DNA from: a virus
Strand: one strand, 5' to 3'
DNA: 64,000 bases
Virus record (IMG/VR): IMGVR_UViG_3300028388_003025
Location: 15,121-79,120 of that record
Shown here piece after piece: positions 1,679 to 18,898 of the stretch. Below the pieces are notes generated by a model. It saw only the letters and a list, made by a program, of their open reading frames with translations, had not been told where the DNA came from and did not search any database. A program made the translations under genes and the position numbers. Every line of letters starts with the position of its first letter. Positions within the stretch are counted from its first letter, which is position 1.

Positions 1679-1706
1679 TTGACAATTTAATTCATTAGTA
1701 TATAAT
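1679..1706 (+). promoter_or_regulatory. Consensus sigma70 promoter TTGACA-16-TATAAT driving the non-coding segment
   Basis: TTGACA 1679-1684, TATAAT 1701-1706; no substantial + strand ORF follows for ~380 nt. Confidence 0.7.
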
Positions 1707-1711
1707 ACATT

Positions 1712-2012
1712 CCGCAAAGTAAATGTTTGGTGGCCGAATAATGTGCTACGCAGGCATAAGGCACAGTTATTGATGGAGGTAACAATCCATTACCCAACGT
1801 CAAGTGATGAGGGAGAGGTAGCTGGTTCCCGCCCGTAGAAATCAACATGGACAGGACAGTCTTGCAAAATGATAACTACTGCGGAAGGGCGATAAGTTGA
1901 AAGACTAGGTTTAGGTGTTTGCTGGACTTGAGCAATTGTATTGTGGGAAGCCATGATACAGCCAGGCTTGAAAGGCGGCATGTAGATATTTCTTTCCCTA
2001 ACATTTACTTTG
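1712..2012 (+). ncRNA. Candidate ~300-nt structured non-coding RNA of unknown class
   Basis: Perfect 13-bp closing stem CAAAGTAAATGTT (1715-1727) / AACATTTACTTTG (2000-2012); internal hairpins at 1772-1791, 1811-1830, 1858-1906, 1919-1935 and 1937-1960; own promoter. Confidence 0.65.
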
Positions 2013-4644: not shown

Positions 4645-6426
4645 ATGGTTTTAGAAGTAGACAATTATAAGCTAGAGTACGAGGGAAATAAACTTTATCT
4701 CCCTCTTACCGACTTATTAAAGAACGAACCTCACCAGACGGAGCCATATCATCCTCAAGGTATATATATAAGAAACAAGATGGTCAGGAAGATAACTGAC
4801 CGTACCGATCTTGACCAGGCGGGCAAAGATTCCCTATTAAGGAAGTTAGACAAGCGAGTATTTACATACGACCACTTCAGGACAGACACTGGCGAACGGA
4901 TGGAGCTTCGACCTTATCAGGTAGGGCTAGCAAATACATGGGCACCTAACATAGCGAACCAATCAAGTCGATCAGTAGGTAAATCAACTTTAATCGAAGT
5001 TGAGGCACTATGGGGCGCGGAAGTATTCCCGGGGTTCCAGACATTGATAGCAACTCAGGGTGAGTCGCAGCTATATCCTATTATGGAGCGTATTATATAT
5101 AGAATAAACAATGATCCATACTTAAAGTCTCAATTGGCAAAGAAGCCGGTACGTAATCCTAAGTATCACATAGTATTCAAGAACGGTCACCAGATATGGG
5201 GATCTATCGCTGGGCCAGACGGAACAAACTTTAACGGGCTTCATGTTCACAGGATATTGGTTGATGAATCGCAGATCATGACGAAGAAGGCATGGACTGA
5301 GTTATGGCGTTGTCGAAACATGGGATCGTTAACTTCAATTAGAATTATGGGCGTGCCTAACGGATTACGGGACAGAAAGTTCTTTGACCTTACTAACGAC
5401 CGCAAACATTGGGAGTGGTTTCATTTTACTCAGTGCATGTTACCTGAATCTAACTTCAATGAAGTAATTAGTGGTGCGAAGGAATATTCCGACATCGGCT
5501 ACCCTGACTTTAACAATCCTGATTTCCTTCAGCAGTTTCTTGGATTGCATGCGGTACCTAGTAGAACTGGTATTGATTTCGATGCATACCTTAAAACAAT
5601 AAAAGAATATGCTTTCTATCAGATCATTGATATACCTAGGTCAGTATTCCCAGAGATCATAACTGAAGACCCAGAACCGATTGCAAGATCGTTCATGGAC
5701 TTTGCTGGCGATCAGGTAAAGGAGATCGACCATTTTATTAAAGACGAAGGGGTTAGCAAGATATTTGCTGGGGCTGACCTTGGTTATGCATCCGACCCTA
5801 CAGAAGTAGTATTATTTTACGAAGACCCTGCTAATAACAATAAGTTAACTGCGATGTGTAGATTCCACTTCGAACGTATTGATTATCCAATCCAGTGTGC
5901 ATTACTAGAATTTTTATTCAATCGCTACCCGATAGTTCGAATGGGCATCGACCTTGGTAACAATGGTCTTGCTGTCCATCAATTCATGATGGCTAAGTCG
6001 TCAAAGTATTCCGAGCGGCTGCGAGGCTTCTTCGCCAACCAGAAGATACTAGTTGGGTACACTGCCGACGATCATGAACAGATAAGGCAGATGAAAGAGT
6101 TTACTACATCAAAGATAAACTCACTTTGCATATCTGATTCAATTACATACAAGCGAGACAAGTTCCGTACCGATCAATACTCTAATGTAGTATATAGAAT
6201 AACATCTGCAGGTAACACTGTATTTCCAAAGGGTAATGATCACATCCTTGATGCCGACAGGTGTATGGTAGCGGCATGGCACTTATATAGAGAACGCTTA
6301 GAAGAGGGTGGTGGTGAAGGAGCGCTTGATCAAAATTTCATTGCATCATTAAAGACGAAGTCACATTTATCTAACAATCCATCTGGAAGTAAGATTGCAG
6401 GTGTTGGGATATTGCCATCAGTTTAG
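4645..6426 (+). CDS. terL: Terminase large subunit
   Basis: LRPYQ adenine-binding motif, Walker A SRSVGKST, Walker B RILVDESQ, RNase H-like nuclease AGADLG...MGIDLG...DHILDA. Confidence 0.93.
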   Translation: MVLEVDNYKLEYEGNKLYLPLTDLLKNEPHQTEPYHPQGIYIRNKMVRKITDRTDLDQAGKDSLLRKLDKRVFTYDHFRTDTGERMELRPYQVGLANTWAPNIANQSSRSVGKSTLIEVEALWGAEVFPGFQTLIATQGESQLYPIMERIIYRINNDPYLKSQLAKKPVRNPKYHIVFKNGHQIWGSIAGPDGTNFNGLHVHRILVDESQIMTKKAWTELWRCRNMGSLTSIRIMGVPNGLRDRKFFDLTNDRKHWEWFHFTQCMLPESNFNEVISGAKEYSDIGYPDFNNPDFLQQFLGLHAVPSRTGIDFDAYLKTIKEYAFYQIIDIPRSVFPEIITEDPEPIARSFMDFAGDQVKEIDHFIKDEGVSKIFAGADLGYASDPTEVVLFYEDPANNNKLTAMCRFHFERIDYPIQCALLEFLFNRYPIVRMGIDLGNNGLAVHQFMMAKSSKYSERLRGFFANQKILVGYTADDHEQIRQMKEFTTSKINSLCISDSITYKRDKFRTDQYSNVVYRITSAGNTVFPKGNDHILDADRCMVAAWHLYRERLEEGGGEGALDQNFIASLKTKSHLSNNPSGSKIAGVGILPSV

Positions 6427-6678: not shown

Positions 6679-6843
6679 ATGGCACAACAAGAAGAGTTAG
6701 TATTTATTTCGGACAGGCAGCTTGGCCTATTAAAATTTATTGAAGCCTTCGATGCCGACAGTGGAGCTATCGAAATTAGTTTTGAGAATGGCGACCCAGT
6801 TATAATCTCTATGGCAGAGAAGGAAGAGAAGGTACTTAGTTAA
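6679..6843 (+). CDS. 54-aa small protein, paralogue of 6471..6677 (absent from ORF track)
   Basis: MAQQEELVFISDRQLGLLKFIEAFDADSGAIEISFENGDPVIISMAEKEEKVLS*; aligns with IFLSKAQAELLKFMEE...IEKGEP; its TAA overlaps the portal ATG. Confidence 0.7.
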   Translation: MAQQEELVFISDRQLGLLKFIEAFDADSGAIEISFENGDPVIISMAEKEEKVLS

Positions 6844-8516
6844 TGTTTGAAGAAATAAGAAAGACTTTCAAGCCTGGTGGTTTTAATAATTTTGGGAAGC
6901 CCACCAAGGCACCAAACCCTAGACTGCCATATAGCCAAGTAAACAAGAAGCCATCTTTACTGGATAAGATAAAGAAGGTAAGACCAAAAGAAGTTACTGA
7001 ACCTGATTATATAGTAGGCAAAGGCAAGATCAATGGCATAAGACCAAAGTCACATGCAACTGACCCTGGCCTTGATGCATTAAAACAAAAAGAGACATTA
7101 TACTTCCCAACCTTCGAAGATAGTATATACACATTAACAAAAGCGAAGGCAAAGCTTTATCGCTTCATGCGAGACACTATTCCTGATATTGATGCAGGTA
7201 TCTGGGCATGGACTAGAATTTGTGACACAAAAAGAAAATTAATTATAAATGGCGGGACTGACATTCAAAAGGCTAAGGCTCTTGAGATTGTCAACATGTT
7301 GGATGAACGTTTATATGAACATGACTTCGTTAAGGCATCTGGTTTTGATTTATTATCAGGCCGTGCATTCATGGATATGTTCACTACTGGATCATCAGCT
7401 GGTGAGGTATGGATTGGCAATGGTGGTAGACAAGTTAACAAATTCCTGACAGTACCACCTGAGAGTATAAGATTTAAAAGAAAGAACAGAGTTGAAGTTG
7501 AAGCGTACCAATATTGGGAGTCTTCAAACAAACTTGCGAAGTTAAATAAGAATACCTTCATATATATGCCACTCAATCTAGAGAGTGCAGAGCTTTATGG
7601 TAAATCAATGTTAACTTCTATTCCATTCGTTTCATTAATACAAAATCAATTAATGAGAGACATGTCTGCAGCAATGCACAATGCTGGCTACACAAAGTAT
7701 CACTATTCAATGACTCCACCTCCAAAGTTGGCTGGCGAGTCAAAGGACGCATACACACAAAGAATCTCTAGCCAGTTCAATGAATTCATTATGCAAATGA
7801 CTAAACTGAATCCAGAAGACAACATTGCTACTTATGACAACATAGACGTAAAGGTTCCTAGCGGAAGCGGTGGCGGTGGCGGCAGCGCAGTAGTCTGGTA
7901 TGATTCGTATAAAGCGGTAGAGGAACAGATCATATCTGGGTTAAAGCTTGCGCCATTCATGATTGGTAGAAACTATGACACCACCGGCGAATTTGGTACA
8001 GCACAGTATGATTTAATTTTAAGAAACGCAACTGCAGTTCAAAGAATAGTTGGAAACATGCTTGCCTGGTTAGCAAACTTAGAGCTAGCAATGAAAGGTT
8101 CTCCATGCCGAGTCCAGATTGAGTATGACAACACTCGTACGGTTGGTGCGCTGTTAGAATCACAAGCTGAGCTAATGAGAACAAAAGCTACTATAATAAA
8201 GCGTAATGAAGGAATCTTATCTCAGAAAGAAACTGCCGAGGAGTTAGGCTATGATCAATACGATCATGATGGACCTAACCCTAAATTTATGAACTCGCAA
8301 ATATCAGTTGACCAAGTGGGAGACACAATGCCTACTAATGGCCAGGCTTCGCTAGACAATATGTCTGAGCAAGAGATATTAAGATTAACTGATCGTGACA
8401 TATTGGATATGAATTTAGATGCAAAGACGATTCGTGAGATTAGACTATTCAAAAGAGATGAGGCTAGCAAAAAACATAGACACATCGAAGAGACTCACGA
8501 TATTGATTTTGGCTAA
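6843..8516 (+). CDS. Portal protein
   Basis: Lies between TerL and the protease; 557 aa; portal-like segments LYGKSMLTS, EQIISGLKLAPFMIG, GILSQKETAEELG. Confidence 0.85.
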   Translation: MFEEIRKTFKPGGFNNFGKPTKAPNPRLPYSQVNKKPSLLDKIKKVRPKEVTEPDYIVGKGKINGIRPKSHATDPGLDALKQKETLYFPTFEDSIYTLTKAKAKLYRFMRDTIPDIDAGIWAWTRICDTKRKLIINGGTDIQKAKALEIVNMLDERLYEHDFVKASGFDLLSGRAFMDMFTTGSSAGEVWIGNGGRQVNKFLTVPPESIRFKRKNRVEVEAYQYWESSNKLAKLNKNTFIYMPLNLESAELYGKSMLTSIPFVSLIQNQLMRDMSAAMHNAGYTKYHYSMTPPPKLAGESKDAYTQRISSQFNEFIMQMTKLNPEDNIATYDNIDVKVPSGSGGGGGSAVVWYDSYKAVEEQIISGLKLAPFMIGRNYDTTGEFGTAQYDLILRNATAVQRIVGNMLAWLANLELAMKGSPCRVQIEYDNTRTVGALLESQAELMRTKATIIKRNEGILSQKETAEELGYDQYDHDGPNPKFMNSQISVDQVGDTMPTNGQASLDNMSEQEILRLTDRDILDMNLDAKTIREIRLFKRDEASKKHRHIEETHDIDFG

Positions 8517-13959: not shown

Positions 13960-14502
13960 ATGGAACTAGTTGCGTCTGAGCTTGAGATAAGAGAGAAGTC
14001 TCTTTACAAGGATTGGGGCTCAATTGATCCAATGCTTGTCATTAATGTATCTATGGAGGCACAGGATGTTATTTCTGTATACCTAGATACGCCATGGTCA
14101 GACAATTCAATTTCTGAGTTACGCGATAACAAACAAATTAAACTAGCACACGTCTTATTGGCGTGTGCTTATTTGTATAGAGACAAAGCTGTTGAGGCTA
14201 CTGAAGATAAAGTAACAGAAGAGGTTGGCCCTCTTTCTGAAACTGCAACTGACAGAAACCTTGACTTCTTAAAGTTATATGAAAGATGGGAGGCTATGGC
14301 ATGGAAACATCTCATGGCATATATAAATACTGACGAGCCTCCAGTTTCAAATCCTGATCTATTATCAAAGATGTTGCCAACATATATAGAGAGACACCCA
14401 AGAGCATATGCGGGAACTGTAAGCGGAGTAGCTTCAGGATCATCAATTGTGGGTAGAGATGCTCAAAGAGTAGTATCCGACGGCGACGTCAATATGGTAT
14501 AA
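13960..14502 (+). CDS. Probable head-tail adaptor (gp15/gp6-like)
   Basis: Helical IKLAHVLLACAYLY followed by EEVGPLSET beta-hairpin, typical of adaptors; synteny. Confidence 0.6.
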   Translation: MELVASELEIREKSLYKDWGSIDPMLVINVSMEAQDVISVYLDTPWSDNSISELRDNKQIKLAHVLLACAYLYRDKAVEATEDKVTEEVGPLSETATDRNLDFLKLYERWEAMAWKHLMAYINTDEPPVSNPDLLSKMLPTYIERHPRAYAGTVSGVASGSSIVGRDAQRVVSDGDVNMV

Positions 14503-14509
14503 TCTATCC

Positions 14510-15238
14510 ATGTCTGGATGGGATACAGCACAAAAATATAAATTTGATGATTACATATTTGATCAGCGGATGCGTGTGTCTATTTTAAAGACTGATCCGA
14601 CAAGCAATGGCGCAACAACTATTGAGGTTCATCTTGGATTTAAAAGCAAAGACAAGAATGCTGTAATGGCCTCTTACGAAAAGGCTAGGCAAATGTTTTT
14701 CAAAACAGGATTAAAGTCTGGAAAGTTTTATTACAAATCAGATACTGAATATATTAATGTAAACATAATAGAGAAGGAAGAGATCCTTCATCCTAAGGGC
14801 AAATCGTATTATGTAAGATTAAAGATGGCTACAGAAGATGATCAAAACATTAAAGAGATAGAACATAAAGAAGAGATTATAACCATAACTTCATCCAATA
14901 ATACCCATATATTTAAAACAGTTTCAGATATAACAAACTGGCTACCATTCAAAATGGAGCTAGACATACAGAATAATATGAGCTACATAGAGATTTATCT
15001 TAACGGAAAAGGTCTAGGGTTTGAGTACAGCTTATTGGCTGGAGACATAGTAAAGATAGATACATCAATAGGAGAGTATTCTGTATACAGGGGTGGAAGC
15101 TTAATTGCAAAGAGAAGATATGATGGCGATAACTTAATGATAGTTCAAAACACAAATGAATTTAGCTTTGGCTCAAGCATTACCGATGCAGATACTGACC
15201 TATTCAATCTTAAGATAGATGTTGAGGAGAAAATATGA
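14510..15238 (+). CDS. Virion structural protein resembling distal-tail (Dit/Sipho_tail)-type proteins
   Basis: C-terminal LLAGDIVKIDTS...SVYRGG...IVQNTNEFSF pattern; preceded by TGgTATAAT (14495-14503) 6 nt before the ATG. Confidence 0.5.
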   Translation: MSGWDTAQKYKFDDYIFDQRMRVSILKTDPTSNGATTIEVHLGFKSKDKNAVMASYEKARQMFFKTGLKSGKFYYKSDTEYINVNIIEKEEILHPKGKSYYVRLKMATEDDQNIKEIEHKEEIITITSSNNTHIFKTVSDITNWLPFKMELDIQNNMSYIEIYLNGKGLGFEYSLLAGDIVKIDTSIGEYSVYRGGSLIAKRRYDGDNLMIVQNTNEFSFGSSITDADTDLFNLKIDVEEKI

Positions 15239-15909
15239 TACATGAAATTATTGACCGCTGGACTTCATACTTCCAATCAAGAAGAGAACTAAAATCTTAT
15301 ACAATAAATTATGACTCAGTAAATGTTGGTGCAGTATCATCAAATGGATACAATGTAATCTTTGTTCCTTTTGCAAAAACAAATAAGCAAATGCCAGAGA
15401 GTGAAGGTAGGTATCCATCTTACGATATAGTTGTTAGAGTTATTGCATCTGGATCGAGCGAAGAAGATGCAAGTAGGCGTGCAGAAAGACTTGCTACAAA
15501 GCTAGAGGCTTTGTTCATGGCCAATAGAAAACTCTTTGATAGATCAAAGATATTTAAAGGCAATGCATATTATTTAAACAACACTGATGTGATCGGCAAC
15601 GCATATCCAGAAGATGTTCGAGGCATTACGGAGGGAAGGTCTGGAACTCTTCAAAAAGAAGTTGACCTATTTGTGCGCTGTTATAGGGATGAATACTTGA
15701 ATTCAATACCAGGTGAGAGACCGGTCAAAGCTCCTGGCGATCCTGACGTGCCAGTAGACAAAGATGAATATCTTGGATGGTATATGCCAGAAGATCAATC
15801 CCTTTACTATAGCGGCCTTGACCCATCAAAGATAAAAGTCTCATTCAGCAAAGAGAATGAACTAGCAATGGTATTTGATTTAGATACAGGATTGATTGAA
15901 AGTAATTAG
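15235..15909 (+). CDS. Probable tail terminator / tail completion protein
   Basis: Immediately upstream of the sheath gene; YDIVVRVIA...AERLATKLEALF alpha/beta pattern; ATGA overlap. Confidence 0.55.
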   Translation: MIHEIIDRWTSYFQSRRELKSYTINYDSVNVGAVSSNGYNVIFVPFAKTNKQMPESEGRYPSYDIVVRVIASGSSEEDASRRAERLATKLEALFMANRKLFDRSKIFKGNAYYLNNTDVIGNAYPEDVRGITEGRSGTLQKEVDLFVRCYRDEYLNSIPGERPVKAPGDPDVPVDKDEYLGWYMPEDQSLYYSGLDPSKIKVSFSKENELAMVFDLDTGLIESN

Positions 15910-18850: not shown

Positions 18851-18898
18851 ACCCGGCAAGCCTCTTGATAATGCTCAAATGTGCCGGGTTTTGTTTTG
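18851..18898 (+). terminator. Intrinsic terminator-like hairpin with a large loop (possibly a skipping-rope-like RNA motif)
   Basis: ACCCGGCA-agcctcttgataatgctcaaatg-TGCCGGGT followed by TTTGTTTT. Confidence 0.65.

Follow-up and report, generated by a model that had tools for sequence, protein, structure and literature searches.

A predicted promoter-driven RNA of about 300 nt with paired ends, located before the packaging genes of a remote phage

The phage record IMGVR_UViG_3300028388_003025 contains a segment that we predict to encode a discrete, promoter-driven non-coding RNA of ~300 nt, with both ends sealed in one helix, and to represent an "orphan" accessory gene; in our estimate this reading has about an even chance of being correct. 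The record is a linear virus sequence of 79,120 bp (~72% complete by estimate), and the window, i.e. the whole stretch of 64,000 nt that was analysed and to which coordinates refer unless stated otherwise, comprises its bases 15121-79120. What goes beyond chance is a conjunction: the best promoter of the record, a helix placed at its predicted +1, and an ORF-free segment of unusual stability.

The candidate occupies a protein-free gap of 441 nt between ORF140 (1228-1650) and ORF100 (2092-2394), which is the largest ORF-free stretch of the region. Upstream of the gap, on the + strand, lie genes for an M16-type peptidase, a CAAX-protease-like protein and ORF115. From the gap to the window end all genes are on the + strand, among them those of a divergent large terminase (TerL, 4645-6426, ~2.6 kb downstream of the gap) and of the portal protein (6843-8516), which corresponds to phrog_3753 with E 7e-39. 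Besides this conventional large terminase and portal, the phage encodes a 3098-aa protein of tape-measure size. The portal is at most 25% identical to its best matches in a set of 50,697 phage records; the phage is remote from anything cultured, and nearly all of its genes are without families.

Promoter, predicted start and closing helix

The elements discussed below, all on the + strand, are the following (P, pair probability).

1138 onward, + strand: promoter P1138, TTGACT-18 nt-TATAAT, 11/12, with predicted +1 at G1174
1173-1185, + strand: 5' end of the ORF140 transcript (promoter P1138, predicted +1 at G1174), complementary to 1663-1675
1663-1675, + strand: 3' strand of the ORF140 helix; the stop codon is 13 nt upstream, the -35 element of P1679 4 nt downstream
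1679-1706, + strand: promoter P1679, sigma-70-type, TTGACA-16 nt-TATAAT, 12/12 (TTGACA 1679-1684, TATAAT 1701-1706), intergenic
1713-1714, + strand: predicted transcription start, 7-8 nt past the -10 element, placed by spacing; G1714 is the nearest purine
1714-1730, + strand: 5' strand of the closing helix P1, from the inverted repeat and the MFE fold
1733-1762, + strand: predicted weak hairpin A, MFE helices with P 0.48-0.63
1764-1824, + strand: predicted three-way domain B, basal stem with P 0.58; includes the hairpin 1771-1777/1786-1792
1825-1893, + strand: predicted domain C, CCC/GGG and CCGUAG/CUGCGG helices with P 0.47-0.74
1899-1996, + strand: domain D, a long bent hairpin of 98 nt with 36 pairs, P 0.76-0.96
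1997-2013, + strand: 3' strand of P1, from the inverted repeat and the MFE fold
2014-2025, + strand: U-rich tail UUCUUAAUAUUC adjoining P1, where transcription may stop weakly or the RNA may end
2018-2030, + strand: 13-nt word TAATATTCATGCT, which recurs unchanged in the -10/start region of P1138 (1164-1176)
2057-2085, + strand: promoter P2057, TTGACT-17 nt-TAAAAT, with predicted +1 at the A of the ORF100 start codon (2092)

A previous model-made inspection of the window, here called the sequence-only reading, had pointed out a consensus TTGACA/TATAAT promoter and, behind it, a segment whose ends form a perfect 13-bp stem. Both are real. P1679 is present where it had been described and matches the consensus at 12 of 12 positions; it is the sole match of this quality on both strands of the entire 79,120-bp record, and one of three host-type promoters that fall within 920 nt (at 1138, 1679 and 2057). 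In sigma-70 promoters the usual spacing between the -10 element and +1 is 7-8 nt, and the start predicted from this spacing, C1713/G1714, coincides with the first base of P1. The perfect inverted repeat 1715-1727/2000-2012, in which all 13 core pairs are of the Watson-Crick type, extends to 16 nt at a 94% match, and in the MFE fold it grows to 14 bp (1714-1727/2000-2013) followed by the two GG/CC pairs 1729-1730/1997-1998, with a mean pair probability of 0.96 and a duplex energy of -17.6 to -18.0 kcal/mol. The pair probability of P1 stays at 0.96-0.97 in transcripts that start from +1 or from the +1 of the upstream promoter (1174-2100) and that run to 2100 or 2400; it drops to 0.13 in the context 1600-2400, which adds bases upstream of +1.

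By itself the stem is not a significant feature, since perfect 13-bp inverted repeats within 400 nt are expected 0.5 times in the window according to Markov shuffles, and one was observed. In a free search for partners over 3 kb the energy of P1, there -16 to -18 kcal/mol, is likewise ordinary (random starts gave a mean of -13.7 and a minimum of -22.1), and we therefore claim no energetic significance for it, only its perfect continuity and its anchoring at +1.

No canonical terminator follows P1, and none is found between 2013 and ORF100. The word TAATATTCATGCT, which overlaps the U-rich tail, occurs in two exact copies (1164-1176 and 2018-2030), and the related AATATTCAT in four + strand copies in the 79-kb record: three of them lie within 920 nt, the third at 2083-2091 in P2057, and the fourth ~2.7 kb before the window start. 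Two of the three clustered copies overlap predicted -10/start regions, while the remaining one, after the closing helix, is without a -35 element. The recurrence may mean that the phage has a start-site motif of its own, or may be left over from a duplication.

Coding potential and interior fold

The gap is non-coding and does not qualify as a small protein gene. Its + strand ORFs are limited to 31 and 33 aa, with GTG/TTG starts; it has no usable Shine-Dalgarno sequence, the SD-like words being without a start codon at a workable spacing; and the peptides from its six frames gave no match in a tblastn search against 197 loci. The gap is also without counterpart among known RNA families. A permissive search of 1600-2120 with all 4227 Rfam models, those for tmRNA, RNase P, 6S, SRP, group I/II introns, riboswitches, T-box, pRNA, GOLLD, ROOL, HEARO and raiA among them, returned zero matches up to E=10, and ARAGORN detected no tRNA or tmRNA in the window. 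The view of the sequence-only reading that the segment bears no tRNA, tmRNA or RNase P signature agrees with the empty ARAGORN output and with the Rfam result, and the comparison with Rfam that it had proposed as a check leaves the candidate RNA without a family even at E<=10. With the 4227 models of Rfam 15 at gathering thresholds, the only match in the window is an abiF RNA motif (RF03085) at 18852-18889 (+), which scores 48.3 bits against a gathering threshold of 37 and is located between two + strand genes of the tail region.

The fold of the candidate is strand-specific. For the full 313-nt segment the z-score is -2.92 on the + strand and -1.54 on the - strand, and for the interior without P1 it is -2.0 and -0.6, respectively. 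The MFE of the candidate, -94.9 kcal/mol, lies below those of all 119 sampled 300-nt windows, the best of which reaches -88.7. The core has a GC content of 0.45-0.49 with a strong excess of G over C and is flanked by AT-rich sequences (GC 0.24-0.35), and neither of the other two long gaps in the window is structured (z -0.48 and +0.32).

When the sub-domains are folded alone, only the 3' domain beats shuffled sequences. This is domain D, whose apical stem comprises 11 bp, including three G.U pairs, and a GAAG loop; the corresponding hairpin 1936-1946/1951-1961 has a pair probability of 0.96. The domain D region (1900-1996) has a z-score of -3.05 on the + strand versus -0.2 on the - strand, an asymmetry that is due to the G.U pairs. 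In a 100-nt scan domain D ranks 25th among 640 windows, and many coding 100-nt windows fold equally well by z. The region 1731-1860, which includes hairpin A, folds no better than shuffles (z -0.49), and domain C is poorly supported, given that the region 1810-1910 has a z-score of +0.15. Within domain B, the hairpin 1771-1777/1786-1792 has an 8-nt loop, GGUAACAA, and appears in the MFE fold with a probability of 0.86.

All internal hairpins listed in the sequence-only reading are present as sequence, and those at 1771-1792 and 1936-1961 reappear in the MFE fold; the others turned out to be weaker or are replaced by alternative pairings. For instance, GGGAG/TTCCC and AGTCTTGCAA/TTGAAAGACT (with one mismatch) exist as sequence, and the MFE fold uses neither. 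A pseudoknot between CGCCC and GGGCG, also suggested there, is not needed, as these bases are partly used in an ordinary nested helix of the MFE fold. The broader proposal of a large phage ncRNA stands as far as its non-coding, promoter-driven and strand-specific character is concerned; less favourably, two of the three sub-domains fold only as well as shuffled sequence, and the fold comes from a single sequence. We regard the support for a structured RNA as moderate, not strong.

These values have to be weighed against the possibility that the gap is no more than a spacer, in which a promoter, real or accidental, happens to lie and in which the stem and hairpins are functionless. We hold this to be unlikely. 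The 0.5 repeats expected by chance and the ordinary energy of P1 in the free search agree with it, and so does the 300-nt scan, with a mean z of -0.70, a standard deviation of 1.16 and 5% of windows at or below -2.9; as noted, many coding 100-nt windows reach equal z, and conservation was seen in none of the relatives compared (see below). Chance would nevertheless have to bring together three independent features, namely the unique 12/12 promoter, the helix at +1 and the lowest energy among the sampled 300-nt windows. It would also have to produce the GC-rich, G-skewed core between AT-rich flanks, a 441-nt gap that is unusual in a tightly packed phage arm, and a neighbouring unit of the same design, to which we now turn.

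The ORF140 unit and the alternatives

In the ORF140 unit, too, the first bases of the predicted transcript pair with the last ones. The helix 1173-1185/1663-1675 comprises 13 bp including one G.U, with an energy of -24.1 kcal/mol and a pair probability of ~1.0 in the full 509-nt fold, and its energy was reached by none of 400 fixed-distance controls and by none of 40 free 3-kb searches. Since the G.U pair is valid only in + strand RNA, this helix is RNA-specific. Two adjacent units that pair their first with their last bases favour a reading of the repeats at the level of RNA, and suggest that the paired ends serve end-sealing or excision from read-through transcripts. RNase III helices enclose the 16S/23S rRNA precursors, where long-range pairing of the flanks frees an RNA with defined, protected ends; the RNase III sites of phage T7 early mRNA, on the other hand, are local hairpins and not enclosing stems. 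The ORF140 mRNA and the candidate RNA resemble the rRNA precursors in that both carry enclosing helices, and differ from them in the shortness of the predicted helices (13-16 bp) and in the position of these right at the predicted +1, which would make a cut on the 5' side superfluous. A far more speculative thought is that sealing of 5' to 3' ends is a general design of the transcripts in this lineage, of which the two adjacent units would be examples.

The same arrangement could also be read at the level of DNA, with the arms of the repeat as protein-binding sites, either in an invertible switch of the cwpV/flgB type or as terminal repeats of a small non-autonomous mobile element. In the cwpV switch of Clostridioides difficile, the promoter lies outside a pair of imperfect 21-bp repeats, which are separated by 195 bp and placed 57 bp ahead of the start codon (PMC2784873). 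The candidate shows a comparable layout, i.e. promoter, inverted repeat, a few hundred bp, inverted repeat, operon, with arms of 13-16 bp that are 266-272 bp apart and 79 bp before ORF100, and with the promoter outside. Its core repeat is perfect and purely Watson-Crick, and it is absent from the nearest relative compared, as an insertion would be. Repeats that flank a short segment near a promoter are thus present as in known invertons, whereas a nearby recombinase and an orientation-dependent signal are missing: no tyrosine or serine recombinase (PF00589, PF00239) was detected at E<=0.1 in the 79-kb record, and inversion of the segment in silico creates no terminator or promoter in either orientation, so a switch would alter nothing obvious. 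The enclosed segment is, moreover, sensitive to its orientation in RNA, the sense transcript having an energy of -95.0 kcal/mol and the transcript with the segment inverted -75.4, a difference of 19.6; a strand-asymmetric fold of the interior is not something that a DNA switch needs. The repeats are also shorter than those of C. difficile, and the left arm lies exactly at +1, whereas in cwpV/flgB it lies tens of nt downstream of +1. Against a mobile element speak the absence of a target-site duplication in the flanks, the uniqueness of the arm word in the window and the single copy of the element in the record; a miniature inverted-repeat mobile element was rejected for the lack of a second copy, of a target-site duplication and of any match in phages or plasmids. 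Finally, the sister helix of ORF140 includes a G.U pair. We consider a DNA element improbable and retain it at all because the record is only ~72% complete and a host enzyme could act on the repeats.

If the repeat acts in RNA, it might still do so in cis, as a structured 5' leader of ~380 nt of the packaging/late operon, for which P1679 would be the promoter. Such a leader could stabilise the 5' end, be the place where the transcript is processed, or, like the put RNAs of HK022, alter RNA polymerase so that it reads through. We regard this as unlikely, though by no means far-fetched. It is in line with the lack of a terminator between 2013 and ORF100, with the common direction of the downstream genes for ~60 kb, with the predicted persistence of P1 in transcripts to 2400, and with the ORF140 unit, where the end-sealing helix is found on an mRNA. 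ORF100 itself, however, the first gene of the packaging arm, has no Shine-Dalgarno sequence before its start at 2092 and has a promoter of its own, so placed that the mRNA would begin without a leader. Translation from an AUG far inside a transcript would therefore be poor, and the packaging operon would not need P1679. The helix, for its part, extends from the first base to 79 nt before the start codon and encloses a complete unit; the nearest relative keeps the operon and not the sequence; and the segment has no match to the cis-antiterminator families of Rfam. Only 6 nt separate the end of P2057 from the ORF100 start codon, and judging from this sequence arrangement ORF100 may be translated from a leaderless mRNA.

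We thus return to the discrete RNA as the preferred reading. From the features described above, we infer its transcription, 3' end, stability and role as follows. Host RNA polymerase would start at P1679, and the first base, G1714, would open the 14+2-bp helix, whose partner strand follows ~285 nt downstream. Because the helix leads from the first base to this partner, the product would be an ncRNA of ~300 nt (start at 1714, end around 2013-2020) in which a single helix joins the two ends and encloses a branched interior; the 98-nt bent hairpin 1899-1996 is the best-supported part of this interior. The terminal helix would guard both ends from 5'-end-dependent and from 3' exonucleases. From read-through transcripts, a double-strand nuclease like RNase III could cut the RNA out at the helix, as in rRNA precursors, and the U-rich run past the helix would perhaps add weak termination. 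Since ORF140 and the RNA each have a host-type promoter of their own, the RNA may be read as early, strongly made and trans-acting; it would then bind a protein, which could be a target in host defence or takeover or else a phage factor.

Relatives, known phage RNAs and possible roles

Comparison with other phages did not extend the candidate beyond a single sequence. The homologue search that the sequence-only reading had recommended yielded nothing in the fetched loci, among IMG/VR word matches, or in phage and plasmid records: the gap has no homologue in ~375 fetched loci by blastn and nhmmer, a covariance model of domain D (R1) finds only itself, and blastn in distant mode gave no match in 50,697 phage records and 72,556 plasmids. 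Three exact 15/16-mers searched over IMG/VR produced 31, 91 and 8 matches, which we attribute to chance because there is no extended similarity around them and no other gene in common with the phage beyond one, a 126-aa match of 35% identity in a single locus, far from the RNA.

Searches with TerL and ORF140 revealed no close relatives in IMG/VR, and a TerL alignment yielded only one locus from that database, L002. Alignment of TerL yielded 80 loci of ~30% identity in metagenomes and another 80 in GTDB genomes, also ~30% identical and mostly from Hydrogenedentota and Nitrospirales MAGs; the portal alignment added 4 further loci, and for the ORF115 family 80 loci were compared. TerL has closer relatives in P0002 (76% identity) and P0004 (68%); the gap was compared with L002 and with the more distant loci. 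In L002, the nearest relative compared, TerL is 53% and the portal 58% identical, and homologues of ORF365 and ORF100 are conserved. The packaging arm of L002 begins with a gap that is about as long as the one analysed here and has no sequence in common with it. This L002 gap was rejected as a structural counterpart, as it contains tandem repeats and no enclosing stem: at 2956-3019 of L002 there are three 22-nt tandem repeats with the core GCCTAGGCATGGAGTA, each with a palindromic GCCTAGGC, which possibly serve together as binding sites for a protein, for instance in a pac site or an operator.

Among characterised phage RNAs, the pRNA of phi29 (RF00044) offers a parallel in setting. pRNA is known from no phages other than small podophages of the phi29 type, whose genomes are protein-primed; the phage analysed here has at least 79 kb and a conventional terminase and portal. 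Like the candidate, pRNA is phage-encoded, has a strong host-type promoter and is linked to packaging genes, and its 5' and 3' ends are paired in a helix that closes a multi-helix junction (PMC3753930). It differs in size (~120-174 nt, versus ~300 nt for the candidate, which has no match to the pRNA model at E<=10) and in its ring-forming loop-loop pairing, while the candidate is known here from its predicted fold. Mining of IMG/VR has uncovered ~8,500 candidate structured RNAs (csRNAs), of which some regularly precede terminase or packaging genes (PMC10690425). These, as well as GOLLD and ROOL, resemble the candidate in being intergenic phage RNAs to which no function has been assigned. However, csRNAs are defined by covariation among homologues, whereas the candidate is a single sequence, and GOLLD and ROOL are both in Rfam and neither matches it. 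The put RNA of HK022 is a promoter-proximal structured RNA at the head of a long phage operon, as the candidate could be. It measures ~70 nt and has two stem-loops, in contrast to the closed 300-nt unit described here, which is followed by another promoter and has no Rfam match.

As for function, nothing that we found supports any of the roles put forward in the sequence-only reading, i.e. ribozyme, anti-defence decoy or packaging; a packaging or decoy role for the candidate RNA is unsupported. Its position nevertheless makes it a reasonable candidate for host takeover, counter-defence or packaging, as it combines the strongest promoter of the record with a place before the packaging genes and in an accessory block. 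That it should found a class of phage RNAs of its own seems to us very improbable; in this reading it would either be an RNA part of the machinery with which a large contractile-tailed phage packages its DNA, such RNAs being known so far only from phi29-like phages, or divert a host immune protein as a decoy. We also considered antisense targeting of mRNA starts and rejected it, the duplex energies to start regions being no better than those of shuffled RNA. Bases 1962-1974 of domain D are a perfect 13-nt complement of codons 8-12 of the portal mRNA (6865-6877); such a match is expected 0.3 times by chance and is thus not significant on its own.

Should the candidate prove real, it would be an RNA gene without relatives in an almost unknown phage lineage, and would add to the small set of stable RNAs, besides tRNAs, that phages encode. 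The paired-ends design that it has in common with the neighbouring mRNA may point to a strategy of transcript stabilisation or processing. As the prediction concerns a single sequence, its value is that of a well-defined, testable candidate, and not of a discovery or an established new RNA class.

The rightward arm starts with the accessory block, which comprises the M16-like peptidase, the CAAX-protease-like protein, a putative minimal nucleotidyltransferase and ORF140. The arm opens with the M16 (insulinase-type) peptidase at positions 14152-15366 of the record and a CAAX/Rce1-like membrane protease at 279-818 of the window. The putative nucleotidyltransferase is ORF115 (819-1166, +), a member of a widespread family of small phage proteins (92 database matches, 306 IMG/VR loci, phrog_35913) for which no Pfam match was found. 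The family has an invariant HGS-x3-D-x-D motif, and a confident structural model of ORF115 (pLDDT 89.8) matches the palm of pol-beta-type nucleotidyltransferases (Pol lambda/mu, terminal uridylyltransferases; Foldseek probability 0.9-1.0, E ~5e-3). On account of this motif and the palm match, ORF115 looks like a minimal nucleotidyltransferase.

The TerL relatives of ~30% identity (L118-L197) are common in MAGs of Candidatus Hydrogenedentota and Nitrospirales, and some of the MAG contigs that carry them are several hundred kb to several Mb long. This suggests a prophage or phage-derived element that is widespread in these phyla.
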